64,000 bases of DNA from Bacteroidia bacterium (lineage in GTDB: Bacteria > Bacteroidota > Bacteroidia > NS11-12g > UBA955): contig JBIISM010000003.1 in NCBI GenBank assembly GCA_044341025.1, forward strand, positions 117,105-181,104. Reading direction: 5' to 3'. The notes under the pieces were generated by a model. It was not told the DNA's origin, did not search any database, and saw only the letters and a program-made list of their open reading frames with translations. The position numbers were made by a program, and so were the translations under genes. Shown piece after piece: positions 32,799-57,042 of the stretch; within the stretch, counting starts at the first letter, position 1, and every line of letters starts with the position of its first letter.

Positions 32799-34205
32799 AT
32801 GCGCATCAAGGCAACCAATATTTACGCTTCTATCTGTCTGGCAATAGGCATGGCTTGCGTCTATTGCATTTTAGACTATTTATACGGCGTATTTACCCAG
32901 CCCTATTTTTGGGATGAATTAGGCGTATATAGCCGTTCTTCTATGTACCTTAGCGACTACGGACTTAGCCTTTTGCCTGATTCCGTTCCAGATGAATTAT
33001 CGCGCGGCCATCCACTTTTATGCCCTCTTTATTTTGCCTGCGCATTTAAAATTTTAGGCTGCAATCCTTTTGCCGCGCATATAGCTGCGGCTGTATTAAA
33101 TGCCATTGGCTTCTTTTTGGTATTCGCAATATTGCTAAAAAACACAAAACCATTTGTTGCTGCAGCCGCTACTTTGGCCATTTTTGTGCAGGCACTATTT
33201 TTATCTCAGTCGCTACTGATACTACCTGAAATGCCGCTTATGGTTTTCACCCTTGCTGCTGTTTACTTTTATATTAATGATAAGATTCTGGCCTCAGCAT
33301 TGTTTATTGTACTTGCACTTCAAATAAAGGAATCTGCCCTTGTGCTGCCATTTGCTTTTTTGGTTTCCGAATCGCTGAGACAAAAGAAAATATTTACAAA
33401 AAACAACCTTTACCTATTTGCATTTCCTGTTCTAAGCTTTTTAATATTTATAGGCATTCAAAAAATCCAGAGGGGCTATTTCTTTTACCCACTCCATACT
33501 TCTCTAGCCTCGTCTGATCCCTATTATATCAATGAGCGTTGGCAAAATTTTAAACTATTTTTTCTTTACCAACAAGGGCATATTTATTTTTTAATTGCCT
33601 TGGCTTTTATACTTTTATTGAATCTAATTTTAAAGTTTAAAAGCATACCAAATCTAATCAAAAACAAAGCAAGCATTTACCCAATCCTTGTTCTTGGATG
33701 TGTTGCATTCTTGGTTTTAAATTACTTTCTAAGTAGGTATACGCTTTACTTCTTTATCTTTATTTACATTGCTTTCTTTCTCCTTGTATTTAACCTGCTT
33801 AAAGAGAAACAAAATCTTGCCTATTTAATCGCTTTGGCACTAGCTGTTTTAGGGATTATGAATTGGAACACAGACGAAGATTACACCGATATTGACTTCT
33901 CTTACAGCCAACACATTCGGTCAGTTCAAATGGCAATCAACGAACTAAACACGGATTCATTTACCAATAAAACAATAGGTATGGATTTCCCCGTTTCTGC
34001 TGTGTATTGGAATTCAAACAATGGTTTTAAATTAAAAGGAAACCATAAAATGTGCCCACTTTACGACTCAGCATGCTCTAAAGACTTTGTTCTTTTAAGC
34101 CACCCGGGCAACATGGCCGACACCACGAAATTTAATGCGTCTTACACCTTTTACAAAGAGCTCCGCAAAGGATATGCGTATTGTAGAATTTACAAAAAGA
34201 AATAG
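32799..34205 (+). CDS. Polytopic GT-C-fold membrane glycosyltransferase (ArnT/PMT GT39/GT83-like), paralog A
   Basis: 468 aa, ~11 TM helices. N-terminal loop PYFWDELGVYSRSSMYL...LSRGHPLL, similar to ArnT/PMT family loop 1. It is a paralog of 55591..57042 (PYFWDEMGAYASGVLYM...SFGHPLM) with a conserved C-terminal HPGNM block. Confidence 0.5.
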   Translation: MRIKATNIYASICLAIGMACVYCILDYLYGVFTQPYFWDELGVYSRSSMYLSDYGLSLLPDSVPDELSRGHPLLCPLYFACAFKILGCNPFAAHIAAAVLNAIGFFLVFAILLKNTKPFVAAAATLAIFVQALFLSQSLLILPEMPLMVFTLAAVYFYINDKILASALFIVLALQIKESALVLPFAFLVSESLRQKKIFTKNNLYLFAFPVLSFLIFIGIQKIQRGYFFYPLHTSLASSDPYYINERWQNFKLFFLYQQGHIYFLIALAFILLLNLILKFKSIPNLIKNKASIYPILVLGCVAFLVLNYFLSRYTLYFFIFIYIAFFLLVFNLLKEKQNLAYLIALALAVLGIMNWNTDEDYTDIDFSYSQHIRSVQMAINELNTDSFTNKTIGMDFPVSAVYWNSNNGFKLKGNHKMCPLYDSACSKDFVLLSHPGNMADTTKFNASYTFYKELRKGYAYCRIYKKK

Positions 34206-36257
34206 CTAGCGCTCAATTACAATTCGTTTCCAAACTGTATCCGTTCCCAATTCAATGCGAATCAAATACATTCCATTTTGAAGGCTTTGCGTATTGATCA
34301 AATTCTTACTGTATGGAAAAACTTCTTCTTCAATTAATTGTCGTCCATTCAAATCAAATAACGATAATTTAGCCAATTCTGGGACTTCGATTTGTAATTG
34401 TTCTTTTACAGGATTTGGATACAATTTTATCTTTGAGATTTGTGAAGATTGAATAGAACTTGTTCTGTAATCTAATGTAAACCTAAAGGTATCAATTCGA
34501 CCACAACGTCCAATTCCACTATATAAAACAACTGTATAATCACCGCTGTCTATGAATTGTTTTCTACCAATATTTTTTATGAAACTAGAATCATAAAATG
34601 TAGAATCTGTGCGGCCAAATTTCCACATGCACAACAAAGCATTGCTGTCTACATGTTTTATAAAATTCATGCCTAAATCTACCAAATACTGAGTACCGGA
34701 AACTGGGTTTGCAAATGCAGTATACTCTGGTGTTGTTTGAACCAATATATTCAAAGAATCACTCGATGTGCACGTCGTTAGTGGATTGGTATACGTGTAA
34801 AACATTTTATACGGTCCGTGGAATGTATTGGTATGCGGACTGGTTTGCGGATCGAAAAATCTACCGTTCACCAAGCCATTTCCTGACCAGGTGCCAACCA
34901 TGCCTGAGGGTATGATATTAAACAAAGGTGTTAAACCCCTGTTGTAACACACTGTATCTTCGGCATCGATTTGAATAACTGGCAGACCGTTTACATTAGC
35001 AATTACACTGTCCGTGAAATCGCATAAACTGGCATTGGTATACCTCAACAAATATTGGCCAGAACCTGTCCATGGTCTAAAATACTTACCAGCTACTATT
35101 GAACTGTCCAATTTTTCAGCAACACTGGGAATGCTTCGGTTTCTTGATCCTCCGTATTCAATTGTTTCCCAATTACCCCCAAAAACAACCCTATTGTTGC
35201 TGTCTCTAACAAAACTGTCCAACGCAACTATGCCTTGGTTTAAACACAATTTATTTAAAGCATTAAACTTTAATTTAGAACCTAACTTAACCAATACAGT
35301 CGCAGTATCAGATCTTTGACAACCCGTACTTGCATCTTTGAAAGTATATTCAATTAGGTATATTCCATTTGAACTTGAATTAAATGGCGCACTAATATCC
35401 AAAGTAAAGGTAACAGGAACAGTCGGTACACTGCTTATTACAGTGCTTGCATTGGCAGCACTTCCACTAGGAACAGACAAACAACGGAACGATTCAATTC
35501 CTCCAACTCTATTAAATGGTTTAACAACCAAGTTGTTTAAAGTTACTGCATTTTGCTTAATGCAATACATGCCATCTAATACCTGAACTTCAGGATTTGG
35601 ATTGATACGTATTGATTTACACTCGCGGTTGAAGCATGACTTATAGTCTCTGTAATCATAGCAAATGGTGTCACGCAAACCCGTTTTAGGTAAAGATCCG
35701 TTTTGAATAAAATTTTTATAATTGTAAATATATGGTTTCGATCCAACTGGACCACCACTAATCCAAGAGGGCGTTTTCTTTTGGTAATAATGCACATCTG
35801 TAGTTGATACCGTTTTATCACCTGAAAAAGCTTTAACAATATTTCTTTGGGTTAAATTGATTGCACCATCATCATAGCAAAATGGTGGAACACCTGAATA
35901 CATAAAAGTTGGCAAGGCATTCACAACAACAAACATGGTATCATAGGCCGTATACGTAATTTTATTCTTTACCCTTTGAACCCTTAATTCAAAAGTTCTA
36001 TTTGTCAGGGAAGTGATTTTCAATCTCAAAAGACTGGCATTGGAATAAACCACCCCATTGCTTAAATCTTTCCATTGGTAGGTTCCTGTATCACCAGTAT
36101 TTAAACCTGAACCCACTGCATTTAAAGTATCCAAGTAACAGATTTCTATATCTAGTCCCGCATTGGCTGTGGCTTGTGCTTGCGTTTTAGAAATGAATAC
36201 AAATATGATTAAGCATACGGTAAGGATTTTCTTCATACTTAGTTGAACTTTTATCAA
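34206..36257 (-). CDS. Secreted hypothetical protein with a T9SS type-A C-terminal sorting domain
   Basis: 683 aa. Signal peptide. C-terminal ~75 aa (KLYPNPVKEQLQIEVPEL...GMYLIRIELGTDTVWKRIVIE) matches the Por/T9SS CTD pattern. Zero intergenic gap to the convergent GT-C gene. Confidence 0.65.
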   Translation of the reverse strand: MIKVQLSMKKILTVCLIIFVFISKTQAQATANAGLDIEICYLDTLNAVGSGLNTGDTGTYQWKDLSNGVVYSNASLLRLKITSLTNRTFELRVQRVKNKITYTAYDTMFVVVNALPTFMYSGVPPFCYDDGAINLTQRNIVKAFSGDKTVSTTDVHYYQKKTPSWISGGPVGSKPYIYNYKNFIQNGSLPKTGLRDTICYDYRDYKSCFNRECKSIRINPNPEVQVLDGMYCIKQNAVTLNNLVVKPFNRVGGIESFRCLSVPSGSAANASTVISSVPTVPVTFTLDISAPFNSSSNGIYLIEYTFKDASTGCQRSDTATVLVKLGSKLKFNALNKLCLNQGIVALDSFVRDSNNRVVFGGNWETIEYGGSRNRSIPSVAEKLDSSIVAGKYFRPWTGSGQYLLRYTNASLCDFTDSVIANVNGLPVIQIDAEDTVCYNRGLTPLFNIIPSGMVGTWSGNGLVNGRFFDPQTSPHTNTFHGPYKMFYTYTNPLTTCTSSDSLNILVQTTPEYTAFANPVSGTQYLVDLGMNFIKHVDSNALLCMWKFGRTDSTFYDSSFIKNIGRKQFIDSGDYTVVLYSGIGRCGRIDTFRFTLDYRTSSIQSSQISKIKLYPNPVKEQLQIEVPELAKLSLFDLNGRQLIEEEVFPYSKNLINTQSLQNGMYLIRIELGTDTVWKRIVIER

Positions 36258-36333
36258 ATGTAGAAAAAATGCCTCATAAATCCAATATTAATTGATTTTA
36301 TGACTAAAAAATGAGCTCTGGTTTTAAATAAAT

Positions 36334-37353
36334 TTAACTCGTCTTGCGCTTGCGGCCTTTGTCAAAAACCAAACGGCCAAAGTTCTTGCCTTTGCGCAAT
36401 TCCTTTTGCTCATCTTCCGGCAATAAAGCAATATGGGTGCACTCTTCACTGCAACAGTTATGAGTCTTTTCTTTGCACTTCTCACATTGAATAAACAACA
36501 AGTTGCAAGCCACGTTGGCGCAGTTGGTATGGGTATCAGATAAGTCTCCACATTGGTGGCATTTCGAAATTATTTCATTGGAAATACTCTCGCCCAAGCG
36601 TTCATCAAATACAAAGTTCTTTCCGTGAAACTTGTTTTTTAGTCCTTTGTCTTTAACCTGGTTGGCGTAATGAATGATGCCACCTTCTAACTGATAAACC
36701 TCCTTAAAGCCTCTGTACAACATGTACGCACTCGCTTTCTCGCAACGAATGCCTCCAGTGCAATACATCACCACTGCTTTGTCTTTTTGATCTTTTAGCA
36801 TTTCAGCAACCTGAGGCAATTGTTCTCTGAAATTAACCACATCGGGAAGTATTGCATTTTCAAAATGCCCAACTTCACTTTCATAGTGGTTGCGCATATC
36901 AACTATAATCACATCGTCTCTATCGGTAAGCCCATTGAATTCTTCAGCTTTTAAATGCTTGCCAATTTTGGTCACATCAAAATTTGGATCGTCTATGCCA
37001 TCGGCTACAATTTTACGGCGAACCTTTATTGCCAATTTGAAAAATGATTTGCCATCATCGTCAACCGCAATGTTCAAACGGTTACCCGCTAAGAAATCTA
37101 TACTTTCTAAATGGGCTTTTAATGCATCTAAATTTTCAGTTGGCACAGAAAATTGGGCATTGATACCCTCATCTGCAACATAAATTCTACCAAGAACACC
37201 AAGCTCATTCCATCTCAAATACAATGCATCTCTAAAGGCCTTTGGATCTTTGATATGATGATACTTGTAAAAGGATATAGTGGTTCTTAACAGACCGCTT
37301 TCTTTGATCTTTTGCTTTAATACTTCTGCGTTTATCTTATTGTGTAATACCAC
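36334..37353 (-). CDS. trhO: Rhodanese-domain tRNA uridine(34) hydroxylase (YceA/TrhO family)
   Basis: 339 aa. UPF0176 N-terminal region, rhodanese catalytic Cys (MYCTGGIRCEKAS), and a Cys-rich C-terminal tail. Confidence 0.7.
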   Translation of the reverse strand: MVLHNKINAEVLKQKIKESGLLRTTISFYKYHHIKDPKAFRDALYLRWNELGVLGRIYVADEGINAQFSVPTENLDALKAHLESIDFLAGNRLNIAVDDDGKSFFKLAIKVRRKIVADGIDDPNFDVTKIGKHLKAEEFNGLTDRDDVIIVDMRNHYESEVGHFENAILPDVVNFREQLPQVAEMLKDQKDKAVVMYCTGGIRCEKASAYMLYRGFKEVYQLEGGIIHYANQVKDKGLKNKFHGKNFVFDERLGESISNEIISKCHQCGDLSDTHTNCANVACNLLFIQCEKCKEKTHNCCSEECTHIALLPEDEQKELRKGKNFGRLVFDKGRKRKTS

Positions 37354-37418
37354 CTTGCAAAACTAATATCCAGTAGGCACTTGTTAAATATGACTTACGT
37401 CAGTCTTATTGACGAAAA

Positions 37419-38090
37419 CTATTTTTTCTTGCTTAAATCGATCATCTCAACACCGGCATGCTCAGCTGCATTGAATACAAAAACCTTGTCATCCATCGCT
37501 GCATTTGGTGTTTGAGAAGTAACAGTGTAGGTTTGCTTATTGCCCGCTTTAAATGACACCTTAAGATTTTGAACCGTTTTAGCTCCTTTATCAACTTCTA
37601 AGTTCATCAAGAAATATGGCTTGTTCTTATCTGTTGGTGTTAACTTAATTTTTTCAATATCAGCAGTCCCTTTTTTAGTTGTACCATCGCTTGCATATAA
37701 AAAACCTTTTTCCCATACTGTAAATATTTTGGAAGGGTTTAAACCAGAACTAGAATTAGGATTGTAATTGTCCTTGATGCATTCATTGGTCTCTTTGGTG
37801 TAAGTCCAAATGGTCTTGCCATCGCAGAATATTTCTTGTCCGCCAAAAATCAATTTGAAACTGTTGCCTTTTGAATATAAAGTGCCCTTCTCTGTTTTAC
37901 TCTTAGCTTTTGTATCGGCAGGCTCATTCAACATGGTGAACTCAGCTTTCAAAGTCTTGTATCCTTTGTACTTTTTAGAAACTTCTTTTAATAGTTTATT
38001 GACCGCCTTGTCTTTCTCGACATTTGCTGGAACGAAGGCTAAACTGGCCAAAGCAATTAAAAAGACAGATATTATGCCTGATTTATTCAT
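37419..38090 (-). CDS. lolA: LolA-like outer-membrane lipoprotein carrier protein
   Basis: Start trimmed to the Met at 38090, giving the signal peptide MNKSGIISVFLIALASLAFVPA. ~220 aa, with the conserved position immediately downstream of ftsK. The track ORF extends to 38132 and abuts the ftsK stop. Confidence 0.55.
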   Translation of the reverse strand: MNKSGIISVFLIALASLAFVPANVEKDKAVNKLLKEVSKKYKGYKTLKAEFTMLNEPADTKAKSKTEKGTLYSKGNSFKLIFGGQEIFCDGKTIWTYTKETNECIKDNYNPNSSSGLNPSKIFTVWEKGFLYASDGTTKKGTADIEKIKLTPTDKNKPYFLMNLEVDKGAKTVQNLKVSFKAGNKQTYTVTSQTPNAAMDDKVFVFNAAEHAGVEMIDLSKKK

Positions 38091-38132
38091 TAGATACTGT
38101 AGGTTAAATTTAAAAGGTGCGAAAATAATCAA

Positions 38133-40709: not shown

Positions 40710-40880
40710 TGTCCATATACTTTCTTATGTGGGCTGAATAAAATCCACATCTATTTGAATGTGTGCAGATAAATGGAATACTTAATTTAAGATACAAAAA
40801 ACAAACTTAAAATACCATAGCACAATTTTGAAATAAGCATTTTAATTTTACGATAAGATTTTACACAAAACTCAAAAAAC

Positions 40881-41540: not shown

Positions 41541-41553
41541 GTTGCAAAGTATT

Positions 41554-41592: not shown

Positions 41593-41597
41593 TAAAA

Positions 41598-45165: not shown

Positions 45166-45534
45166 AAATCATTTCTTTTAAAGTAGAAATAAGGTTTAAA
45201 AACAAAAAACCATTTGTCATATTTTCAAATTAAATGTAGATAGTTCAAAAAAACGCGTATTTTTGTTTGGAAGGAAGAATAAAAACGCTTGTTTACTTCT
45301 ATACTTCGCAGCCGCTAAAAAACTAGGCACTTTAATCTTAAAAACAACTATGAAAAAAAACAGACCAAACACATTTTTAAATCCAAATTTCTAATTTGAA
45401 GCAACTTTGGTATCAAACCATTGAAATGCGCGAACATCTATTTTATAGGTCTTTTCCTATCTCTTACACAAAGAGTCGGGCAGTATTAACTGCACTTAAA
45501 TTTTAGTTCCAATTTTTAAAAAATCAATTATTTT

Positions 45535-45774
45535 ATGAAAAATTTAGTTTTCAAAACGTTTCTTTTATTGGCTTTTGTAATGGTGTCTTTTATTGGTAAA
45601 GCACAGAATTATCTCAATTTTACCATTACAAATAACAGCACAGCTTGTTCTGGAAGTGGTTGTGTTGGCACAGGTATTACAGCAAACAGCACTATGCCTG
45701 GTCCAGTCGGCCCTCCACCTGGTGGGTGTGGCTTTTTAGGTTTTCTTTATACCTTAACAATTAATTTATATTAA
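45535..45774 (+). CDS. Small secreted Gly/Cys/Thr-rich peptide (79-aa precursor, ~55-aa mature)
   Basis: Signal peptide MKNLVFKTFLLLAFVMVSFIGKAQ, then NYLNFTITNNSTACSGSGCVGTGITANSTMPGPVGPPPGGCGFLGFLYTLTINLY with 3 Cys and a PGPVGPPPGG segment. Lies 95 bp upstream of the large T9SS adhesin. Confidence 0.4.
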   Translation: MKNLVFKTFLLLAFVMVSFIGKAQNYLNFTITNNSTACSGSGCVGTGITANSTMPGPVGPPPGGCGFLGFLYTLTINLY

Positions 45775-45868
45775 TCCTAAACAAAATACACTTAAAGAAC
45801 TTTATTGTAAAAATAGAATTCTTTGAGTGTATTTTTGATTTGATTTTATTAGACAAAAAAATACCTGA

Positions 45869-48800
45869 GTGCGAAAGTTTTACATTTTTCTGATTTTTGT
45901 TTTCTTCCTAGCTGACGCTCGGGGGCAAAACTTCAAATGGTTAAAATCTTTTGGGACAAAAAATTCAGGAGAATCTATTGTTGCATCGTTAATTACTTCA
46001 AATAATGAATCTGTATTTCTATTAAAAATTTCCGCAAGCATTTCTAATACTAATTCTGATACAATCGAATTTGATACTTTTAAATTTATCATTCCTCCGG
46101 GCATCGATGCAATTAGAAGTTTTTTAGTGAAAGTAGACACTGACGGAAAGGTAATTAAAGCGGTCTTACTTGGAAAATTTGGTGTCGAATCAATGTGTAA
46201 AGACCACAATGATAATTTCTATATAGTTGGTAATTTTAATATAATAGATACAAATCCAATCTCTATTCTTGGAAAATCAACAAACTTGGTTCCTAAAAAT
46301 GGAAACTATTTGTATTTCAAAATAGATAGTAATCTCAACTTGTTATGGCATAAACAAATTGGCAATCTTTACACCAATGTACTTTATGTCCAAAATATTC
46401 AATTTTTAAATAAAAGTATTTATTTTCTTGCCAGATCAAAAGGCAAAACTGTTGTGGGTGATAGCACTTATAATCTTGATGCAAATTCATATTCATCAAT
46501 TTATGGAGAAATAAATTTAAGCAATGGAAGTGTTGTTTGGTCTAATTGTTTATTCAAAAACAATTCTCCAGGGACAGCTGAAGTTATATTCCAAGGTATT
46601 ACTCGAATAAATGGTAATTTATTTATTTCAGGATTTAATAATTCGGGGAACAATTTTACTATTGCCTCAGATATTTTTTATAATCAAACACCTTTTATCA
46701 TAAAGACAGATTCTGTAGGAAAATATAAAGGGATGTTTACTCTAAATAACAACAGACCTGTTTCATTTACAAATGTTGTTACAGATGGTAAAAATTTGTT
46801 TTTCGGAGGTAGTTTTTCTGATAGCCTTACTTTTAAGCAAAAAGTTAAAATTGTACCATATTTCCCATCGGGATCAGCGAAGAAAGAAATGTTTGTAGCA
46901 TCAATTAGTTCTTCATTTGAACCTATATGGTTTTTCCATCCTGAAGTTAAGGATTTTAGCGCAAAAAATGGTGGAGAAATGGATTACCTATTATGTACAG
47001 AGAATTTTCTTTATGTGAGTGGTATATTAAGTGCTCGTGTAAGTATAAATGGAGATATTCTTAATCCCTATTCTCTTTCAAAGTATGATTTGATAATAAT
47101 GAAAATGGATGTAATTGGAAATGTTCTTTGGGCAAAAAATAGTGTGTCTTATGGTATCACAAAATTTATAGATGCAAAGAACGAATCATTGGTTCATTTT
47201 AGCGGTTTTTATAGAGATTCAATCCGATTTGATAAGTTCAAAGTAATTTCTAAAGGTCAAGCCGACGCCTTCATCACCAAACTCTCCGACAACGCCATTA
47301 TCCGTGGTCAGGTAAAGGCTGGTCCTTATTGTGCTGGCGATACCTTGCGCATTCCTTACCGCAAGATAGGCGATTATGACACCTCCAATGTCTTTATCGC
47401 TGAACTCAGTGATGCCGATGGTAACTTTACAGGTGCGCACCGTCAACTTGGTAGACTAAAGTCCAATAAAGATAGCGTGATTATTGCACGTTTGCCTTTG
47501 TTTCAGGTCGGCTCTTCTGAAAAGTACAGAATTCGAATATTAAGTACCGCCCCTGCTGTGCAAAGCTATTATAAGGTCGATACGCTGAGGCTTTTGATCT
47601 ACTCTAAAGACAAGGCCTTTGCTGGCAATGATACCACAATCTGCAATGGCGATTCGGTAAACCTTCAAACCTATGGCGGTACCAAATGGAGCTGGATCCC
47701 TAGCTATAAATTAAAAGACAGCACTGCCCGCAAGACGCCTGCTTGGCCCGATAAAACCACGCGTTATAAAATTATTATTGCCGATAGCAGTGGCTGTGGT
47801 ATGGCCGATACCGCTTTTAAAACCATAGTGGTGCGCAAGCTTCCAAGCATACAATTTCACACACCCAAAGACACAGGTGTTTGCATTGGAGGCCGCATGC
47901 CTTTAATTGCTTCTTTCCATGGTGGCGATTCTTTAGGTTACTCTTGGCAATGGGCCATTATTGACGGCTTAGGCAATTATAGTTTTCCGCGCTCAGGTTC
48001 TGGTAAACTAGCCGATACACTGCTTTACACCATGCCTGTGAATGAATTGGATTCTATGCGTTTTGTGTTGTACCTCAACGATGGCTGTACACCCAAAACT
48101 GCCTTTTACAATTATACCCTAAAAGTTAAAAAGCAAAAGTCAAGGGCTAAGTTTAATGGCTTAGACACATTGGTATGCCCTGGTAAAGCCATTGGTATAG
48201 TGGCTGGTTTTGATGCGGGCGATTACAGTTTGTATTCTTGGACTTGGCAAGAACAAAACCTCTCAGGCTCTTGGAACAACAGACGCTTTGGAAGCAATAA
48301 AGGTGCTGATACCTTTATGTACACCTTAAGTCCTTTGTGGCAAGGAAAGAAAAAACTGCGTGTGTTGCTTAAAGACCAATGCACCGGTCTGAGCGATACT
48401 GCTGTTTATTCTCTTATTCCAAGAGATACCTTATCGCTAAGTCTTAATAGCAGTGACACCACCCTGTGCCAAGGCAGTCAATATGTGTTTAAAGCAAAAG
48501 CAAAGGGAGGCAATCCAAGTACTTACCAATATCGATGGATCAACACCAATAACCAAGACACCTTAACGCTAACAGACAGTTTGCTTTACAAACCAAAAAC
48601 ATCAACGGCCCTAATGGTGGAAGTAAGCGATGGCTGCATGCAAAGGTCTATTCAAAAAACCATTCAAGTATATATGTTACCTGCATTGATAACAGACATA
48701 TACAGCCAATCAAAAAAGGCAAAAGACAGCACCTTGTGTTACGGGCAAGTGCTTAAGCTATATGCCCAAAGCAGTGGCGGTATAGGCAGTGGCTATAATT

Positions 48801-50200
48801 ACTTATGGAAATACAATGGGGTAAGCATTGGTCAAAAAGACAGTATGGCATTTACACCTTATCAAAGTGCAGTCCTTGAACTTATAAGCAGCGATGGCTG
48901 CTCGGTAAATGACAGCAGCCGCATAAACATAAATGTATTGCCTAAGCTAGAATCTAATATCAAAACCCAAGACAGTCTTTGCTTGCCAAGTACTTTGAGT
49001 CTAAAAGCTCTGGCTCAAGGAGGCAAAGGAAACTACAGCTACCAATGGCTAAGTTCAAGCAATGTATTGCTAGGAACTAAAGACAGTTTGCAAATCAGCT
49101 ACAGTGATAAAACCCAAACTGGTTTACTAGTTTATAGCTTGATTATACAAGATGGCTGTTCCAACAATGACAGCACAAAAATAAACCTCCATTTATTGCC
49201 CGGTTTGAGTCTTGCTCTAAAGACCCAAGATACTTGTATTAGTTCGTCAACTGTATTGACTGCTTTAGCTTCAGGAGGAAAATCAAATAAGCATCAAATT
49301 ACTTGGTTTAAAAATGGGGTGTTTTTAAGCTCAGGACCAAGCAGCAGTTTAAACATTGCAGCACAAAGTGCAAGGTACAGCGCCGTCTTAAACGATGGCT
49401 GCAGCAAGGCCTCAGACACTGCCAGCATAAGGGTTTACACCAAAGCACAAGTCAGCATAAGAGTGAGCAATCCTTGTTACGGTGATACCAGTGTTTTAAA
49501 AGCAAGACTGCTCAGCAGCAACCCAATATCCAATTACAATTGGTTAATTGACAACACTAACACAAGCACCATTGATAGTGTATTGAAATTTAGGTTTAAC
49601 AGTATTGGATTGCACACCATTGTTTTAAAAGCAGGCACAGGCCAATGTGTGGGCAAAGATTCCATCCGTTTTACCATCATTGAAAAACCAAAGGCAGCCT
49701 TTGATTTTACCCATTTGCCTAACACCAACACAGGCATACCTTTCCAGTTTAACGACCGCTCATTGCTAGCCAATTCATGGGCTTGGACCTTTGGAACTTA
49801 CGGGCAAGTAAGCTCCAAAAACCCTAAGTTTACTTTCCCTGACTCAGGTTTTATACGCATCAAATTGCGTGTTGGAAAACAAAACCTTTGCTTTGACAGT
49901 ACAGAACAAAATATTCCAATTTACGAACGGATAGAATTCTATTTTCCTGATGCAATAAGCATTGACGGCAATGGCATAAACGATGCCTTTGGTTTAAACC
50001 CAGGGCAATATCCATTTGTAAAAACCTACCGCTTAAGCATCTTCAACCGCTGGGGTGAAAAGGTATTTGACTCCGATGTTAAAGAAGAAACCTTTAGCAT
50101 TTCTAGTGCACTGCAAGGTGTTTACGTTTACAAAGTATTTATCAAAGATATTTATGATGTAACCCATACGCTGGAAGGGACCTTGACGGTGTTGAAATGA
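45869..50200 (+). CDS. Large cell-surface adhesin-like protein: SprB/Ig-like repeats plus a T9SS type-B (gliding-motility CHU_C) C-terminal sorting domain
   Basis: 1443 aa. Signal peptide. At least 7 repeats of ~90 aa, each containing C-x-G-D/Q...GG-x-x-x-Y-x-Y-x-W (e.g. AQGGKGNYSYQWLSS). The C-terminus FPDAISIDGNGINDAFGLN...YRLSIFNRWGEKVFDS matches the type-B T9SS CTD. Confidence 0.65.
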   Translation: MRKFYIFLIFVFFLADARGQNFKWLKSFGTKNSGESIVASLITSNNESVFLLKISASISNTNSDTIEFDTFKFIIPPGIDAIRSFLVKVDTDGKVIKAVLLGKFGVESMCKDHNDNFYIVGNFNIIDTNPISILGKSTNLVPKNGNYLYFKIDSNLNLLWHKQIGNLYTNVLYVQNIQFLNKSIYFLARSKGKTVVGDSTYNLDANSYSSIYGEINLSNGSVVWSNCLFKNNSPGTAEVIFQGITRINGNLFISGFNNSGNNFTIASDIFYNQTPFIIKTDSVGKYKGMFTLNNNRPVSFTNVVTDGKNLFFGGSFSDSLTFKQKVKIVPYFPSGSAKKEMFVASISSSFEPIWFFHPEVKDFSAKNGGEMDYLLCTENFLYVSGILSARVSINGDILNPYSLSKYDLIIMKMDVIGNVLWAKNSVSYGITKFIDAKNESLVHFSGFYRDSIRFDKFKVISKGQADAFITKLSDNAIIRGQVKAGPYCAGDTLRIPYRKIGDYDTSNVFIAELSDADGNFTGAHRQLGRLKSNKDSVIIARLPLFQVGSSEKYRIRILSTAPAVQSYYKVDTLRLLIYSKDKAFAGNDTTICNGDSVNLQTYGGTKWSWIPSYKLKDSTARKTPAWPDKTTRYKIIIADSSGCGMADTAFKTIVVRKLPSIQFHTPKDTGVCIGGRMPLIASFHGGDSLGYSWQWAIIDGLGNYSFPRSGSGKLADTLLYTMPVNELDSMRFVLYLNDGCTPKTAFYNYTLKVKKQKSRAKFNGLDTLVCPGKAIGIVAGFDAGDYSLYSWTWQEQNLSGSWNNRRFGSNKGADTFMYTLSPLWQGKKKLRVLLKDQCTGLSDTAVYSLIPRDTLSLSLNSSDTTLCQGSQYVFKAKAKGGNPSTYQYRWINTNNQDTLTLTDSLLYKPKTSTALMVEVSDGCMQRSIQKTIQVYMLPALITDIYSQSKKAKDSTLCYGQVLKLYAQSSGGIGSGYNYLWKYNGVSIGQKDSMAFTPYQSAVLELISSDGCSVNDSSRININVLPKLESNIKTQDSLCLPSTLSLKALAQGGKGNYSYQWLSSSNVLLGTKDSLQISYSDKTQTGLLVYSLIIQDGCSNNDSTKINLHLLPGLSLALKTQDTCISSSTVLTALASGGKSNKHQITWFKNGVFLSSGPSSSLNIAAQSARYSAVLNDGCSKASDTASIRVYTKAQVSIRVSNPCYGDTSVLKARLLSSNPISNYNWLIDNTNTSTIDSVLKFRFNSIGLHTIVLKAGTGQCVGKDSIRFTIIEKPKAAFDFTHLPNTNTGIPFQFNDRSLLANSWAWTFGTYGQVSSKNPKFTFPDSGFIRIKLRVGKQNLCFDSTEQNIPIYERIEFYFPDAISIDGNGINDAFGLNPGQYPFVKTYRLSIFNRWGEKVFDSDVKEETFSISSALQGVYVYKVFIKDIYDVTHTLEGTLTVLK

Positions 50201-50204
50201 TTAA

Positions 50205-52805
50205 TTAAAGCATCTTCTTCAATTCCTGCAATTTCATCAAGGCATCTATAGGGGTCATGGCATTGACTTCCAAAGCACTTAATTGTCTGTGCAGTTCTTC
50301 CAATTTGGGGTCGTTGACACCAAACATGCTTAATTGATATTGCGGAACCTTTAGCGTTTTTAAAGTCTCCCTGCCACTTATTTGGGCACGGTCTTTTTCA
50401 AGCTCTATTAATATTTCTTCAGCTCTTTGTAAAACGGTCTTTGGAACGCCCGCCATTCGGGCTACATGGATACCAAAACTATGCTCACTTCCACCTTTTA
50501 CCAGCTTGCGTAAAAACAATACCTTATCTTTTGTTTCACGCACCGAAATATGGTAATTAACTATGCCCTCAATATTTTTTTCCAATTCATTCAACTCATG
50601 GTAATGGGTTGCGAATATTGTTTTTGGTTGCTCTGGATGTTTGCCTAAATACTCTGCAATAGCCCATGCCAAACTTACCCCATCGAAAGTACTGGTTCCT
50701 CTTCCAATTTCGTCTAATAGTATTAAACTGCGGTTCGAAATATTATTCAAAATTCCGGCAGTTTCTATCATCTCAACCATGAATGTACTCTCGCCACCAG
50801 AAATATTATCACTAGCCCCTACCCTTGTGTATATGCGGTCTACCAATCCAAAGGCGGCTTCATCTGCTGCAACAAAACAACCAATTTGTCCCATCAAAAC
50901 TGTCAAAGCGGTTTGACGTAAAACAGCACTCTTACCACTCATATTGGGTCCTGTAAGAATCACTATCCTTTGGGTTTCTAAATCCAACTCAATGTCATTG
51001 GGTATATACGCATTGTCTACCGGCAGTTGCTTTTCAATTACTGGATGTCTGCAACCCAATAACTTCAAATTAAATCCTTCATCAATCAAAGGTCTAACAT
51101 AACGGTTGTCTTGAGAAATGCGGGCAAAACTCATCAAACAATCCAAACGGGCCAATAAATGGCTGTTCAATTGAACAGGATTGATGTAATCGCCCATGTG
51201 CAACAATAGATTGCTGTATATCGTGTTTTCAATTTCTAATATGCGGCTCTCGGCACTTAATATTTTATCCTCGTATATCTTTAATTCTTGGGTAATATAA
51301 CGCTCTGCATTGCTTAAAGTCTGCTTGCGAATCCACTCCTCAGGAACCTTGTCTTTATGTGTATTTGTAACCTCTAAATAATATCCAAATACATTGTTGA
51401 ATGCAATTTTTAATGAAGAAATTCCCGTTGCTTCTGCTTCGCGTTTTTGTATCTCTAATAACTTCTCCTTGCCGTTCAATTGCAAATTGCGCAATTCATC
51501 CAATTCTTCATCAACGCCATCGTTGATAACACCGCCCTTATTAATCAAAATTGGCGTATCGTGTTTCAGCTCTTTGAATATCTTTTCTGCCAACTGTATA
51601 CACGGATTTAATTGCTCTGCATAAATCTGCATTTCAGCACTAGGCATGTCCATGCAAATTTCTCTAATTTGCTTAACACAATCCAAAGCCCTAGCCAGTT
51701 GTAAAACTTCTCTAGGATTGGCACGCAACAAGGATATCTTTGAAATGATACGCTCTATATCCCCACATTGTGACAGCAAATTGGCAATTTTTTCTGCTGC
51801 GTCCTTGTATTGAATAAAACCTTCAACCGTATTTAACCTTGCATTTATCTGCTGCAAATCCTTCAATGGCAATACAACCCATTTTTTCATTAAACGGCTG
51901 CCCATAGGGGTTTGCGTTTTGTCCAAAATATCTGCCAGAGTTTTGCCTCCGGGATTCGATGGATATAAAACTTCTAAATTGCGAATCGTAAACTGATCAA
52001 ACCATACATATTTATCCTCATCCATACGGCTAATCGCATTGATGTGTTTGATGTTGTTTTGTTGGTTGTGCTCCAAGTAATACAAAGCACTTCCGGCAGC
52101 TACAATGGCTGAACTTAAATGCCCGATACCGAATCCTTTTAATGTACTCGTACCAAAATGATTCAATAATTTCTCTTCCGCATAATCCGATTGGAAAACC
52201 CAATCTTCTAAGGCAAAATGGTAATACTTATCTGCGGTTAACTGTTTAAATAAATTGCTCTGCGGTTTGCTTATAATCACTTCCGCAGGCTTTAAACTGC
52301 TCAACAATTTATTGATGTAATCTGAGGAGCCTTCTGCCACCATAAACTCGCCCGTCGATATATCTAAAAAAGCAACGCCTGTGTGGTCTTTTCCAAAATA
52401 AACTGAGGCTAAAAAATTACTGGTGTTAATGTCTAAAACTTTGTCGTTAAAAACAACGCCAGGCGTAACCAATTCTGTAACCCCTCTTTTTACAATACCC
52501 TTGGCCATTTTTGGGTCTTCCAATTGCTCGCATATTGCAACCCTGTGTCCGGCCCTCACCAATTTAGGCAAATAGGTGTCTAAGGAATGGTGCGGAAACC
52601 CAGCCAGCTCAATTTCACTGCTGCTGCCAGCACCACGCTTGGTTAATACGATGCCCAAGACCTTCGATGCAAGCACTGCATCTTCTCCAAAGGTTTCGTA
52701 AAAGTCGCCCACACGGAACAACAAAAGTGCTCCAGGGTACTTCTGTTTGAACCCTGAATACTGTTTCATCAATGGTGTCTGATTATCTGTTATCTTTGCG
52801 GACAT
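50205..52805 (-). CDS. mutS: DNA mismatch repair protein MutS
   Basis: 866 aa. N-terminal mismatch-binding FYETFGEDA (Phe-x-Glu), Walker A TGPNMSGKS, and a C-terminal HTH dimerisation region. Confidence 0.9.
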   Translation of the reverse strand: MSAKITDNQTPLMKQYSGFKQKYPGALLLFRVGDFYETFGEDAVLASKVLGIVLTKRGAGSSSEIELAGFPHHSLDTYLPKLVRAGHRVAICEQLEDPKMAKGIVKRGVTELVTPGVVFNDKVLDINTSNFLASVYFGKDHTGVAFLDISTGEFMVAEGSSDYINKLLSSLKPAEVIISKPQSNLFKQLTADKYYHFALEDWVFQSDYAEEKLLNHFGTSTLKGFGIGHLSSAIVAAGSALYYLEHNQQNNIKHINAISRMDEDKYVWFDQFTIRNLEVLYPSNPGGKTLADILDKTQTPMGSRLMKKWVVLPLKDLQQINARLNTVEGFIQYKDAAEKIANLLSQCGDIERIISKISLLRANPREVLQLARALDCVKQIREICMDMPSAEMQIYAEQLNPCIQLAEKIFKELKHDTPILINKGGVINDGVDEELDELRNLQLNGKEKLLEIQKREAEATGISSLKIAFNNVFGYYLEVTNTHKDKVPEEWIRKQTLSNAERYITQELKIYEDKILSAESRILEIENTIYSNLLLHMGDYINPVQLNSHLLARLDCLMSFARISQDNRYVRPLIDEGFNLKLLGCRHPVIEKQLPVDNAYIPNDIELDLETQRIVILTGPNMSGKSAVLRQTALTVLMGQIGCFVAADEAAFGLVDRIYTRVGASDNISGGESTFMVEMIETAGILNNISNRSLILLDEIGRGTSTFDGVSLAWAIAEYLGKHPEQPKTIFATHYHELNELEKNIEGIVNYHISVRETKDKVLFLRKLVKGGSEHSFGIHVARMAGVPKTVLQRAEEILIELEKDRAQISGRETLKTLKVPQYQLSMFGVNDPKLEELHRQLSALEVNAMTPIDALMKLQELKKML

Positions 52806-52862
52806 AAGGCTTAGTCTTGGTTTACAATTTTAGAAAAATAATTTTACAATTTACCCGAAAAA

Positions 52863-53387
52863 ATGTACCGCAAGTTACACACACATCAACTTAACCGATT
52901 AACAATTTATCAATACCAAACCACGCCCCTAAACCCCATTTGCGTTGTGCTCGACAATGTTAGAAGCATGAACAATATTGGCAGTATTTTTAGAAGCTCT
53001 GATGGTTTTGGTGCTGAGCATGTGCATCTTTGTGGCATAAGTGCTTGTCCTCCCCACCGCGATATCCATAAAACAGCTCTTGGTGCTGAACTAAGTATGC
53101 CTTGGACCTACCACAAATCATGCTTGGAAGCTTGCATTGAACTTAAAAAACAAAACTATTTATTGGTTGCTGTTGAACAAGTTGAAAACAGCGTTTTTTT
53201 ACAAGACTTTAAAGCCCATTCTGAACAAAAAATTGCACTCATTTTAGGCAATGAAACCGATGGCGTTTCACAAGAAGTTTTGGATGTATGCGACCATTGT
53301 ATTGAAGTGCCTCAATTTGGAACCAAACATTCTTTCAATGTTTCTGTTTGTGCAGGCATTGTTCTTTGGGAATTGACCAAATTATAG
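52863..53387 (+). CDS. SpoU/TrmH-class RNA 2'-O-methyltransferase
   Basis: 174 aa. SPOUT motifs: NIGSIFRSSDGFG, LILGNETDGVS, VPQFGTKHSFNVSVCAGIVLWEL. Confidence 0.7.
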   Translation: MYRKLHTHQLNRLTIYQYQTTPLNPICVVLDNVRSMNNIGSIFRSSDGFGAEHVHLCGISACPPHRDIHKTALGAELSMPWTYHKSCLEACIELKKQNYLLVAVEQVENSVFLQDFKAHSEQKIALILGNETDGVSQEVLDVCDHCIEVPQFGTKHSFNVSVCAGIVLWELTKL

Positions 53388-53550
53388 TTGTTTTTCATCT
53401 ATAAAACATTCATTTGCATTTTAATTAATGTACAAGATAATATTCATTGCACTTCAATTGCGTATATTTAACTTTTTTTATTTCACTGATTTGAGTCAAC
53501 TTGCATTTGATTTTTTTAATGGCACCATTTTTGAAAATCTTAAAATAAAC

Positions 53551-55596
53551 ATGAAGTATTTCATACTCTTACTATTTGCTAACCTATTGCCCTCTTTGCA
53601 GTTTGCCCAAAACAAAGCCGTGGCCCTTGATTGGCAAAACCAAATTGATTTTGAACAAAACCGCTTCGATATTTTGGATGGTGATTTGGATGGCAAAATA
53701 GAACTAAGCAGTGAAAACCAAAGCACTATAGCCACCAAACTCTATTTAGAACGCATCGATTTGTTTCAAACCCAAATTAAATCGCTTGATGCTGTTCAAT
53801 CAAAACAATACGCCAGAGGCTTGTTCGAATATCTTAAGAAGATTCAAAAACAAGACATTGTCCATTTGTCTTCTTCCCAACGCAACATCGATTTACTAGA
53901 CAAATTAATTAACTTAAAAAACGACAGCAAAGAGCTTGAACTTTTAAAAACAGACATTAAAACGGGTTTAAATTTAAGCGATATCATCAACCTCAAAACC
54001 TATGCTAAAACCTATTGGTTATATGCCGCTGGCTTTTACCCTACAGACGTGTTGAATGTATTTAAAAACTTAGCTTACTCGCCTCTCGGCAATGATGTGT
54101 TACTTGCCTTAGCCCGCATCGATCCTGCAGCCATCAAACAATACTTTGGTTCCAACCACATCATCGATAGGGCGATTAAAAATTCTAAAGACAGCATTGC
54201 CATCTTATTGTACGATATCTACAAACAATTTGGCACACAATCTCGGGCCTATGCACTCATAGAATACATTTCTAAAAAACAATTGAGCATCGCTGAAGCA
54301 GATCAAATTGCAAAAGACCCCAAACGCTTTTTTTCTAAACTCATAGAGCTGAGAAAAAAACAAAATATCTTGGCCGATTACACCGTCGACAAAGAACTCG
54401 AATCGATTGGTATGGAGCGGGTAGTTGAAATAAATCTAAGACACGAAGAAACCGAAGTGTACAGATTTTCACCCATTCAAAATGACAATGCCTACGAAAT
54501 TTATACGTCCATTGTCTATTGTCCTCAAGAAATATTTACCTCAACTTTCCTTGGTATGTATAGCCGTCTCATGGAAAAAAGAAAGGAAACGTCCTCTTAC
54601 CTGTTCCTGAAAAAAATGAACTACAACAAGTTCAGAATCTTTCTAAAACAATGCGCAGGCTATAACAAATTAGACGATTTCTTTTCTCATATGAACGACA
54701 GCCAAGCCAACGCACTTATCCAAGCATTTGCAGGTGGCTTGTACAATTATGGTGGCGATCTGGGCCCGGCGGTTGATGTTGCTGATACCTACGGAAGTTT
54801 AGATAACGAAAAAATTAAGGCTATTTTCCTAAACACCATTGAAAAAGAATTGAAAAAATGCATTCTTGAAAGCAATGAACACGGTATAAAAATATATGGT
54901 CTATTGCTCAAACTTTGTGGCGGAAATCCTACTAGCTATAGCAATAAATTTACTTTTGATATCCCCAATTTAGACCGTGTGCGTTCTGCCGACTTATTCC
55001 CCGATAGCTTACACATTCAACAACACTTTTTCTTTGATGATGAAGACGGTGAAACCGCTTTTAACAACTGGTTAAGCTTGTACCCTGCTGCCATTTATAA
55101 AAAAGAGGACAAGGGAACCTACATCGTTTTCAAAACCATTAAAGGAAAGCGCATGGCAATTTATGCCAACAAACCCCATTCAGAAATTGAGGGTAGAAAG
55201 GCGCTTAGCGCTTACTTCGAAAGCATAAACCGTTTTCCAGATTTAATCGTTCACCGCGGTCATTCTTACTATATTGAAAACACGCTCGACAACATGAGCA
55301 ACAGCAACAAAGTGGCTATTTTAGGGAGTTGTGGTGGTTATCAAAACATTAGTAAAGCAATGGAAAACGCCTTCGATGTTCAAATTATCAGCACCAAACA
55401 AGTGGGAACTATGGCCGTTAATACCGTCCTTATTCAAGAAATTACTGAAACAATTAGAGCCGGAAAAGACCTTGTATGGTTGGATGTTTGGAAGCAAATA
55501 AGCATCAAACTTAAAAACAATCCGCAGTTTAAAGATTACATCCCTCCATACAAAAATTTAGGTGCCAAATTCATTCGTGCTTACAACGAATTATAG
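53551..55596 (+). CDS. Large secreted hypothetical protein
   Basis: Start trimmed to the Met at 53551 (signal peptide MKYFILLLFANLLPSLQFAQ), giving ~681 aa. Mostly helical, with no recognisable motif. Its 3' end overlaps the convergent GT-C paralog B by 6 nt. Confidence 0.45.
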   Translation: MKYFILLLFANLLPSLQFAQNKAVALDWQNQIDFEQNRFDILDGDLDGKIELSSENQSTIATKLYLERIDLFQTQIKSLDAVQSKQYARGLFEYLKKIQKQDIVHLSSSQRNIDLLDKLINLKNDSKELELLKTDIKTGLNLSDIINLKTYAKTYWLYAAGFYPTDVLNVFKNLAYSPLGNDVLLALARIDPAAIKQYFGSNHIIDRAIKNSKDSIAILLYDIYKQFGTQSRAYALIEYISKKQLSIAEADQIAKDPKRFFSKLIELRKKQNILADYTVDKELESIGMERVVEINLRHEETEVYRFSPIQNDNAYEIYTSIVYCPQEIFTSTFLGMYSRLMEKRKETSSYLFLKKMNYNKFRIFLKQCAGYNKLDDFFSHMNDSQANALIQAFAGGLYNYGGDLGPAVDVADTYGSLDNEKIKAIFLNTIEKELKKCILESNEHGIKIYGLLLKLCGGNPTSYSNKFTFDIPNLDRVRSADLFPDSLHIQQHFFFDDEDGETAFNNWLSLYPAAIYKKEDKGTYIVFKTIKGKRMAIYANKPHSEIEGRKALSAYFESINRFPDLIVHRGHSYYIENTLDNMSNSNKVAILGSCGGYQNISKAMENAFDVQIISTKQVGTMAVNTVLIQEITETIRAGKDLVWLDVWKQISIKLKNNPQFKDYIPPYKNLGAKFIRAYNEL

Positions 55597-57042
55597 TTTT
55601 CTCTTTTTAAATAAATACGATTTGGCATAACCTGATTCGAACTGCTTTACCAAGCTGTATATTTGGGTATCAGGTGCATTCCATTCCATATTTCCAGGAT
55701 AACAATATACCCTGTACTGAGCAGTTTTTGAAAACGTGGTGTCTAATTTAAATTGTCTTTCTTTAATGTAACCAAAACGGCTATCAACAGCTGCCAATTG
55801 CAAAGGAAAGGCAAAGCCAATGCTGTCATTTCTGTAATCGCCTGAATTAACAAAATTCAACATTTGGGCATTGGCTTTTATCATATGTCTATACCCTAAA
55901 TCCACTTCTGTAAACCTAGTCTTGTTTTCTAAATTAAACACACCTGTTACGTAGGCAAGCAATACGCCTAATACGACTAGCATTGGATGAAAGCGTTTGA
56001 AATACACTATGCCTTTTGCAAATAACACCACCACAAAAGGGAGCAATATTAAAAAGTATCGGTCCAATACCGCTGCTATGCCTGAAAATGCGATAAATCC
56101 AAAACAATAAATGCCCAGCAAAATAAGATCAGAATCCAATTTAAATCGGATTTTATTTTTTTGAATTAAAGATACCACCAAGGCAAGAACACAAATGCCC
56201 GATAACACCAATCTACCTTGGTCTTTAAATGCTATTTCCAAAGGATAATCCCAGGTCTTTTGAAGTATACTGCCCAAACTTGGTTTTAAATTTCCCAAAT
56301 TCCCTGGATGCAAATACCATCCAAATGTTGCCTTTGTAAGCAATAAAAAGGCAAAGAAAAATCCTATAGGCAAGAGAAATAATATCGATTCTTTAAAGAC
56401 CTTCCTTTTGTCTTGGTCAAACAGTAATAGGTAGACTCTATGGGTCAAAAACGCAATGGCTAAGACCAGCCCAGTTTCTTTTGTTAATAGTCCAAAAACA
56501 CAAAACACAATCGCCAATACATAGTTTTTGCGCATGTAAAAAAGCAAGGCAAAAGTGGTGTTCATGGCCAAGAATACTTCCAATAAAATTTGTGTTGAAA
56601 GAGCCAAGACCATAGGCTGCATTAAAAACAACAAAAATGATGTGAGCGCTATCAAACGGTCTTTGCTCAAATGAAGGGCCAATAAATACGTGCCTAATGA
56701 TAATAGGTAAGTAAACAAAAGGTTGCAGACATGCAAGCTGGCAACACTTGAACCAAAAACTTTTGCAAAAAGTGAAAACACAAGATGCATCATCAGTGGA
56801 TGACCAAAACTCAATGAGGCCGGCAAAGCAGAAGGCAAGATGGAAATGCCATGGTCGTGCATATACAATACCCCACTCGCATAAGCGCCCATCTCATCCC
56901 AAAAATAGGGTAAGAAAATGTCGTTCCATTTTACCATTAGAAAAACAAGCCAAGCCAAGCCCATCAATATGTTTCGGTAGATTGCTTTCTCTACCCATCC
57001 AAACCACTTGCTTTGAATTGTATGTTCTTTTTCTACTGACAT
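55591..57042 (-). CDS. Polytopic GT-C-fold membrane glycosyltransferase (ArnT/PMT-like), paralog B
   Basis: 483 aa, ~12 TM helices. PYFWDEMGAYASGVLYMHDHGISILPSALPASLSFGHPLM and a C-terminal YPGNM block are shared with 32799..34205. Confidence 0.5.
   Translation of the reverse strand: MSVEKEHTIQSKWFGWVEKAIYRNILMGLAWLVFLMVKWNDIFLPYFWDEMGAYASGVLYMHDHGISILPSALPASLSFGHPLMMHLVFSLFAKVFGSSVASLHVCNLLFTYLLSLGTYLLALHLSKDRLIALTSFLLFLMQPMVLALSTQILLEVFLAMNTTFALLFYMRKNYVLAIVFCVFGLLTKETGLVLAIAFLTHRVYLLLFDQDKRKVFKESILFLLPIGFFFAFLLLTKATFGWYLHPGNLGNLKPSLGSILQKTWDYPLEIAFKDQGRLVLSGICVLALVVSLIQKNKIRFKLDSDLILLGIYCFGFIAFSGIAAVLDRYFLILLPFVVVLFAKGIVYFKRFHPMLVVLGVLLAYVTGVFNLENKTRFTEVDLGYRHMIKANAQMLNFVNSGDYRNDSIGFAFPLQLAAVDSRFGYIKERQFKLDTTFSKTAQYRVYCYPGNMEWNAPDTQIYSLVKQFESGYAKSYLFKKRKL

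Follow-up and report, generated by a model that had tools for sequence, protein, structure and literature searches.

Does the packing of a membrane glycosyltransferase gene against the gene for a secreted protein mean that the enzyme modifies that neighbour? The question is raised by a stretch of 64,000 nt from a Bacteroidia bacterium (contig JBIISM010000003.1; the window below), 92% of which is coding and in which two paralogous glycosyltransferase (GT) genes, GT_A and GT_B, each converge on and abut a gene for a large secreted protein, here T9nbrA and nbrB respectively. From this repeated arrangement a sequence-only reading had proposed dedicated glycosylation of secreted proteins or of type IX secretion system (T9SS) cargo, or else of the lipopolysaccharide (LPS) that anchors such cargo. 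Apparently the abutments say little on the matter, and it is in relatives of the two genes that an association with T9SS cargo is suggested.

The two genes are confirmed as open reading frames (ORFs) and as paralogues, their products aligning by BLASTP over 450 aa, of which 27% are identical and 47% positive (E 3e-41), and all-against-all BLASTP finds no third paralogue among the window ORFs. Residue 35 of GT_A aligns with residue 45 of GT_B and so PYFWDE stands opposite PYFWDE; of the motifs claimed to be shared, PYFWDELGVY/PYFWDEMGAY and GHPLL/GHPLM are indeed present, but the supposed YPGNM block reads HPGNM in GT_A and YPGNM in GT_B, with only PGNM in common. Pfam PMT_2 (PF13231, gathering cutoff 26.1 bits) is matched above cutoff by GT_B (37.2 bits) and below it by GT_A (19.6 bits), and a precomputed PF13231 match is present in many homologues of the GT_A clade (A clade; B clade for GT_B). 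Pfam PMT (PF02366, cutoff 22.7 bits) scores GT_B below cutoff at 17.9 bits and does not match GT_A; no MIR domain is matched in either protein by Pfam, no inserted luminal domain is seen in the GT_A model, and the NCBIfam ArnT family gives no match to either at E ≤ 0.1.

The AlphaFold2 model of GT_A is very confident (pLDDT 93.7, pTM 0.92). Its membrane domain is entirely helical, and behind it residues 360-468 form a conserved alpha/beta domain. Foldseek against the PDB returns at E ≤ 1e-3 only GT-C enzymes, namely ALG12 (1.7e-8), ArnT (5e-6), ALG9 and Pmt4, the next matches being to oligosaccharyltransferase (OST), PglB and DPY19 at E 1.6e-3 to 1e-2, and a profile of the family alignment run against PDB sequences has yeast Pmt1 as its sole match (E 4e-4). 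In an alignment of 60 sequences the residues W38, D39, E40, Y44, P60, G70, H71, P72 and E144, and also K177, E178, R313 and Y314 (GT_A numbering), are invariant, with W48-D49-E50 as the GT_B counterpart of W38-D39-E40. The D39-E40 pair lies directly after transmembrane helix 1 (helix 5-29) of the GT_A model. PMT enzymes carry a 'DE' motif and the catalytic residues of GT-C enzymes sit in the first periplasmic loop; by analogy with GT-C enzymes such as PMT, D39/E40 is the putative catalytic pair. Because the GT_A N-terminus bears R2/K4, the positive-inside rule would put the first loop, and likewise the C-terminal alpha/beta domain, in the periplasm. For helices 2-7 the count of transmembrane segments from DSSP is of inconsistent parity, and this bears on the membrane face of E144 and K177/E178. 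With PMT_2 passed by GT_B, fold matches confined to GT-C and the acidic pair invariant, GT_A and GT_B are almost certainly GT-C enzymes of PMT/ArnT type, as had been proposed. A reading of them as O-antigen ligases devoid of glycosyltransferase residues was rejected, as neither Pfam nor NCBIfam gives a Wzy_C or ligase match, the fold is that of GT-C and the acidic pair is kept.

The two add to an enzyme class already known (GT-C, PMT_2-type) and fall in an uncharacterised subfamily whose nearest structural and sequence relatives are protein O-mannosyltransferases; in an exhaustive HMMER search this subfamily comprises 992 50%-identity clusters (E ≤ 1e-30, full-length matches). Relatives were compared by their genome loci (L numbers). 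The 80 loci of the family come without exception from metagenome-assembled genomes (MAGs) or from cable bacteria, and Bacteroides, Flavobacterium, Tannerella and Porphyromonas are not among their sources. Purifying selection acts on both genes (dN/dS 0.07-0.085 for GT_A, 0.11-0.12 for GT_B), and the two co-occur in at least seven MAGs (contig pairs L007/L085, L008/L069, L009/L083, L024/L075, L021/L073, L018/L039 and L016/L071), and therefore the duplication is old and both copies have been retained. Coordinates of the features discussed are collected in Table 1.

Table 1. Positions of the glycosyltransferase genes and of the other features discussed, in window numbering.
Feature	Position	Strand	Description
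GT_A	32799..34205	+	468-aa GT-C glycosyltransferase, PMT_2/ArnT-like subfamily; C-terminal alpha/beta domain of ~110 aa, predicted periplasmic
GT_B	55591..57042	-	483-aa paralogue of GT_A; Pfam PMT_2 4.4e-9
GT_A D39-E40 codons	32913..32918	+	Invariant acidic pair, predicted first periplasmic loop; putative catalytic motif
GT_B D49-E50 codons	56893..56898	-	Acidic pair equivalent to GT_A D39-E40
T9nbrA	34206..36236	-	~676-aa secreted protein with type-A T9SS C-terminal sorting domain; convergent with GT_A
nbrB	53551..55596	+	681-aa secreted protein; predicted N-terminal helical domain and C-terminal caspase-like (separase/CHAT-like) domain
Type III glutamine synthetase (GSIII)	30480..32672	+	Pfam; conserved upstream flank of GT_A
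UPF0176 rhodanese	36334..37353	-	Pfam; conserved downstream flank, adjoining GT_A where T9nbrA is absent
CHU_C adhesin-like protein	45869..50200	+	1443 aa; T9SS type-B C-terminal domain, CHU_C 7.2e-8
MutS	50205-52805	-	Pfam; housekeeping block including nbrB
SpoU methylase	52863-53387	+	Pfam; housekeeping block including nbrB

The junctions themselves are exactly as had been described. The TAG of GT_A ends at 34205 and the stop of the minus-strand T9nbrA begins at 34206, leaving a 0-nt gap, and the GT_B stop occupies 55591-55593 with the plus-strand nbrB ORF ending at 55596, a 6-nt overlap. That such abutment is out of the ordinary is not borne out, because of the 8 convergent pairs that the window contains, 4 are separated by ≤4 nt, including the unrelated pairs RuvB/PNP-family gene (-4 nt) and CHU_C adhesin/MutS (+4 nt). 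In relatives without T9nbrA it is rhodanese that lies next to GT_A, 28 nt away in L007/L008 and overlapping by 4 nt in L012-L014. Zero spacing is the local norm, a matter of genome compaction and no sign of coupling; convergent genes share no transcript either, and so the step from repeated pairing to dedicated glycosylation finds no support.

At the GT_A locus the neighbour is a T9SS protein of type A, as the sequence-only reading had it, with a C-terminal domain (CTD) at residues 612-681 matching Por_Secre_tail (PF18962, 1.1e-13) and TIGR04183 (2.3e-12) and an N-terminus, tested for a signal peptide, that reads MKKILTVCLIIFVFISKTQAQ, both as would be looked for in type-A cargo. Its ORF runs from 34206 to 36257, the likely start being the ATG at 36236, which gives the 676 aa also called on L001 and L002. 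The order SoFic-like, GSIII, GT_A, (T9), rhodanese, LolA, FtsK, LigA is kept down to 41% GT_A identity. Full-length T9nbrA orthologues of 36-41% identity adjoin the GT_A orthologues of L003, L017 and L018, copies at about 80% identity are found in L009 and L010, and contig-truncated copies with the C-terminal ~470 residues in L011 and L016. An orthologue is present in 8 of the 14 scorable A-clade loci and missing in the other 6, which are the closest relatives L007 (93%) and L008 (92%) together with L012-L015. GT_A is kept wherever T9nbrA is missing, with dN/dS ~0.08 in L007/L008, T9nbrA itself having dN/dS 0.14-0.15. Left out of these counts is L021 (MAG JAWKNQ01), in which the GT_A (7998-9400) and GSIII (1622-3684) genes are each split in two ORFs, an assembly or frameshift error being likelier than a pseudogene. 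Since full-length orthologues at 36-41% identity adjoin GT_A orthologues, the adjacency is to be regarded as ancestral but dispensable, and the pairing, checked across relatives, is not conserved, the closest of them lacking it.

A second orthologous T9SS cargo of 1299-1349 aa is encoded upstream of GT_A in L003, L009 and L011 and not in the window, and so in these A-clade loci orthologous cargo genes occupy both flanks of GT_A; the three copies are 58-69% identical, and that of L003 has Cadherin_5, Big_9 and Por_Secre_tail domains by Pfam. On the metagenome contig L001 GT_A is 100% identical to that of the window and rhodanese and LolA are 97% identical, while the T9 neighbour (7408-9438) is only 78% identical to T9nbrA. 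It would seem that the stop codon of GT_A marks a recombination boundary or the beginning of a hypervariable surface-protein locus.

The GT_B locus has a different history. Its neighbour nbrB is the secreted hypothetical of about 680 aa that had been described, with its most plausible start at 53551, where it reads MKYFILLLFANLLPSLQFAQ and looks like a signal peptide. Pfam, NCBIfam and a PDB profile search gave nothing significant for nbrB, and the one informative search was a fold search, which gives it a predicted separase/CHAT-like fold and would make it a candidate clan CD cysteine peptidase, with H571/C594 as the putative His-Cys dyad. It is broadly conserved and is not a T9SS cargo. It adjoins GT_B only at ≥90% identity (L069, L083, L085), so that here too the pairing lacks the conservation expected of it, and is the more widespread of the two, with at least 245 homologues against 45 for GT_B; in L087 and L088 (nbrB identity 65% and 36%) a MutS(-)/SpoU(+)/nbrB(+) block is present and no GT-C is called within 8 kb. 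By gene order nbrB is thus a member of the MutS-SpoU block and does not belong with GT_B.

Relatives of GT_B at 45-51% identity instead have, on one strand, a 56-65-aa secreted Cys-rich peptide, then GT_B, then a 1745-1749-aa PKD/CHU_C adhesin. The adhesin lies 3' of GT_B in 8 loci (L005, L039, L055, L073, L081, L089, L090, L091) at gaps of 53-210 nt, and full-length identity among these adhesins is 55-64%; L071 shows the peptide alone, as its contig ends. Wherever the contig reaches that far, nbrB is found past the adhesin, in convergent orientation in four loci (L055, L081, L089, L090) and in L005 on the same strand. The peptide is conserved in 7 loci, with its stop overlapping the GT_B start. 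It has the motif KPKPCGKYxGxxLYKGxKGGCYYLK..KVKVYVDK..C.C (L005 7810-8004, L089 7822-8007, L090 7831-8001, and also L039, L055, L071 and L091); Pfam gives it nothing significant (PBCV_basic_adap, E 0.085), and conceivable roles are those of acceptor, partner subunit and regulator.

The lineage of the window has lost both peptide and adhesin from this locus, and tblastn finds no remnants of either in the window. With the relatives' adhesin as query it shows only CTD-level and immunoglobulin (Ig)-level similarity to the unrelated 1443-aa CHU_C protein, which was rejected as an orthologue of that adhesin, the likeness being limited to the ~100-aa CTD and scattered Ig-level matches. Since the window and its close relatives are without peptide and adhesin, the GT_B/nbrB overlap is best read as the scar of a deletion that removed the conserved adhesin partner of GT_B. 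On the other side of GT_B, 1.45 kb upstream, is a tRNA-Met gene (58495-58567, minus strand). Around it lie four ORFs that could not be annotated (57577-61256; 126, 92, 471 and 125 aa) and long non-coding gaps (534, 708 and 797 nt); the 471-aa ORF has an L005 homologue bearing a FokI cleavage domain, and the region looks like a small variable islet.

Further T9SS neighbours are met across the family. A third, distant GT clade (L060, L067, L079) has on the same strand the GT, a 1524-aa adhesin at a gap of 75-76 nt and a PorP/SprF gene (4.7e-32), and its adhesin is 26-27% identical to that of the B clade over about 1250 residues; no terminator-like site is seen in the GT-adhesin spacer of L089 or L060. 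T9SS cargo also adjoins the GT in L019/L020 (IgGFc_binding plus CTD), L036 and L080. When genes near family members were scored with an iteratively built CTD model, a CTD turned up in 23 of the 133 immediate neighbours and in 23 of the 527 remaining genes within 8 kb (odds ratio 4.6, P 2e-6), an enrichment taken over loci that lack phylogenetic independence and hence collapsed into identity clusters; at 60% identity 12 clusters with CTD adjacency are observed and 4.2 expected (P about 2e-4). The family-wide association with T9SS cargo is suggestive and not conclusive. The link drawn earlier between these GTs and T9SS cargo in this way gains moderate independent support from other relatives.

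Other members keep other company. In a Chitinophagales clade a conserved same-strand gene for an exported lipoprotein lies downstream of the GT instead. Cable bacteria (Electronema, Electrothrix) have a tight operon in which a 740-786-aa DUF2304 + PMT_2 fusion, a second GT-C, is followed by the family member and then by a 247-aa GT2 (L032 5644-10091, L028, L031, L040, L045, L051 and L076, with the GT2 not following in L076). In L080, a Bacteroidetes MAG, a GT2 synthase homologue lies two genes from the GT-C, beside the T9SS cargo gene, and is a very close homologue of the cable-bacterial GT2 (E 1.6e-106); among the loci a GT2 synthase is found near the family member only in cable bacteria and L080.

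In the mechanism that we propose, a GT2 synthase would supply a polyprenyl-phosphate-sugar, from which each GT, at the periplasmic face of the inner membrane, would pass one sugar unit to an exported acceptor, D39/E40 serving as catalytic acid-base pair. The cable-bacterial operon, with its GT2 synthase and second GT-C, fits a donor of this kind. The acceptors would be surface or secreted adhesin-type proteins, glycosylated in PMT-like fashion in the periplasm before T9SS export, and the substrates would extend beyond the product of the neighbouring gene. Such proteins are the acceptors we tentatively put first, a choice that may well prove wrong, because T9SS cargo recurs in several clades and the closest relatives are protein O-mannosyltransferases. 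Several observations weigh against it. To our knowledge, lipid A or the LPS core is the target of those PMT_2-type enzymes that have been characterised in Gram-negatives, ArnT and its relatives. The GTs persist under purifying selection without adjacent cargo (L007/L008 for GT_A, the window for GT_B), and therefore they are not dedicated to those neighbours. Neither a GT2 synthase nor a flippase is encoded in the window; the subfamily also occurs in cable bacteria, Myxococcales and Verrucomicrobia, for whose phyla we know of no described T9SS; Bacteroidota genomes have many T9SS cargo genes, which are mobile; and with clustering at 40% identity the enrichment is no longer significant (2 observed, 0.76 expected, P 0.17).

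Some of these observations suit an ArnT-like role, in which sugar would pass from undecaprenyl-phosphate-sugar to lipid A, LPS core, O-antigen or anionic LPS (A-LPS), or another envelope polymer, the T9SS proximity being incidental: the Gram-negative precedent of PMT_2-type enzymes, the survival of the GTs after loss of their neighbours and the presence of the family in phyla with no T9SS described all fit. Nevertheless arn-type, lipid A and polysaccharide genes adjoin GT_A or GT_B in no Bacteroidia locus examined, and the NCBIfam ArnT family is not matched. Type-B CTD adhesins are held by PorP/SprF-type proteins and not by A-LPS, and so an A-LPS role leaves the type-B adhesin partners of the B and third clades unexplained. 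An ArnT-like role on LPS seems rather unlikely to us, and PMT-like glycosylation of adhesins is favoured over it. A more specific form of the adhesin proposal, drawn by analogy, would make the subfamily adhesin-specific bacterial protein O-glycosyltransferases, functional counterparts of the eukaryotic TMTC and TMEM260 enzymes, whose targets in the periplasm, before export, would be the Ig-like domains (PKD, cadherin, Big) that giant T9SS adhesins carry; the order peptide, GT, adhesin (and PorP/SprF) would then be ancestral, and the GT_A and GT_B of the window would be 'orphaned' and act in trans on several cargoes. In so specific a form it is speculative and seems unlikely.

Much less probable is a dedicated pairing in which GT_A acts on the protein of 34206-36257 and GT_B on that of 53551-55596. 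For it can be said that the junctions are real, that 8 of the 14 scorable A loci have an orthologue of T9nbrA as partner and that T9nbrA bears 9 D(S/T)(A/I/L/V/M/T) motifs. Yet the convergent orientation rules out co-transcription, tight junctions are usual in the window and recur between GT_A and rhodanese in L012-L014, GT_A is retained under selection in L007/L008 with T9nbrA gone, and nbrB sits elsewhere in its MutS-SpoU block with several times the matches of GT_B; by these gene orders the model is largely refuted for GT_B and weakened for GT_A. It would be more surprising still if GT_A and GT_B were the missing initiating transferases of a general O-glycosylation shared by the whole Bacteroidota phylum. 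A review states that the oligosaccharyltransferase (OTase), core-glycan flippase and ligase of that O-glycosylation 'remain undiscovered' and suggests O-mannosylation homologues as leads (PMC12871550), and the two enzymes are PMT-like and face the periplasm, in a window whose exported proteins are enriched in D(S/T)(A/I/L/V/M/T). On the other hand the family is patchy, a word-indexed search giving only 45 (GT_B) and 120 clusters; the genera in which the system was defined are the four absent from the loci set, which indicates, within the reach of these loci, that B. fragilis, F. johnsoniae, T. forsythia and P. gingivalis have no family members; and two paralogues with further clades speak of specialised enzymes. 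As candidates for a general O-OTase they were dropped on the patchy distribution.

Taken alone, the window holds two ordinary-looking conserved GT-C genes, whose abutments come from compaction, conserved housekeeping synteny and deletion, and the more interesting lead lies outside it, in the cluster of peptide, GT, giant T9SS adhesin and, in part, PorP/SprF. Should the adhesin link be real, it would reveal a glycosylation step in the periplasm that is dedicated to T9SS surface adhesins, and would assign a first function to this PMT-like GT-C subfamily of diderm bacteria (~1000 clusters). No paper linking a PMT_2/GT39-type enzyme to T9SS came up in searches of the literature.

The 21-kb interval that the two GT genes bracket contains housekeeping genes, with rhodanese, LolA, FtsK, LigA, uracil-DNA glycosylase (UDG), an ABC ATPase, MutS and SpoU, and the interval was rejected as a functional island. 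Of the SprB-repeat T9SS adhesin said to lie there, the T9SS protein is real (the CHU_C match), but Pfam does not confirm SprB repeats. Upstream of its gene, 703 nt (45166-45868) are without an ORF of ≥90 aa and without an Rfam match at gathering threshold, and no PorP/SprF gene adjoins it, unlike the type-B adhesins of L060 and L079. The D(S/T)(A/I/L/V/M/T) sequon occurs 30 times in this adhesin, besides the count given for T9nbrA, 7 times in an S41 peptidase and 4 times in a DUF1573 protein (the exported examples listed include 14597-16243 and 21422-22537), and 0-2 times in most cytoplasmic window proteins. Its concentration in exported proteins therefore suggests that the general Bacteroidota O-glycosylation system may operate in this organism. 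Elsewhere in the window two divergent AlaDh_PNT paralogues of 28% identity (1269-2381, minus strand; 2549-3649, plus strand), one heading a pntA/pntB transhydrogenase operon, are ordinary.

Among known systems the protein O-mannosyltransferases of GT39 include yeast Pmt1/2/4 and actinobacterial Pmt such as M. tuberculosis Rv1002c. GT_A and GT_B differ from them in having 10-16% identity, no MIR domain, ~470 aa against >700 aa, a C-terminal alpha/beta domain of their own and Pfam PMT scores below cutoff. ArnT, the GT83 transferase of 4-amino-4-deoxy-L-arabinose (L-Ara4N) to lipid A, has an operon context of ArnA-D and ArnE/F; with 10% identity and no NCBIfam match to it, GT_A and GT_B have no arn-type neighbours, standing in the window beside glutamine synthetase, a T9SS protein, rhodanese and the MutS/SpoU block, and the conserved neighbours of their relatives are adhesins and not lipid A genes.

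A functional analogy is offered by the PMT-clan GT-C enzymes dedicated to Ig-like adhesion domains. Cadherin domains are the targets of TMTC1-4. TMTC1-4 are domain-specific eukaryotic O-mannosyltransferases (PMC7801869), and TMEM260 is an O-mannosyltransferase specific for IPT domains, also eukaryotic (PMC10214176). The likeness is that in this subfamily a GT is encoded with PKD, cadherin or Big_9 adhesins; it is an analogy only, as GT_A and GT_B are without tetratricopeptide repeat (TPR) domains and have no detectable specific sequence relationship to these enzymes. Three-component extracytoplasmic glycosylation combines a GT2 polyprenyl-phosphate-sugar synthase, a flippase and a GT-C, and the known systems decorate glycans (PMC11127046). 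The cable-bacterial operon of DUF2304-PMT_2 fusion, GT-C and GT2 resembles this arrangement, as does L080 with its GT2 two genes away, but the window and its Bacteroidia relatives have no adjacent synthase or flippase. The protein-glycosylating transferases of Bacteroidota are still sought (PMC12871550), and the family of GT_A and GT_B, patchy and not phylum-wide, is too patchy for the general enzyme. What GT_A and GT_B would share with the general O-glycosylation of Bacteroidota and with the N-glycosylation that T9SS CTDs undergo in the periplasm of Cytophaga hutchinsonii (PMC12871550, PMC11611037) is the step proposed here, a periplasmic glycosylation of exported proteins and T9SS cargo before their secretion.

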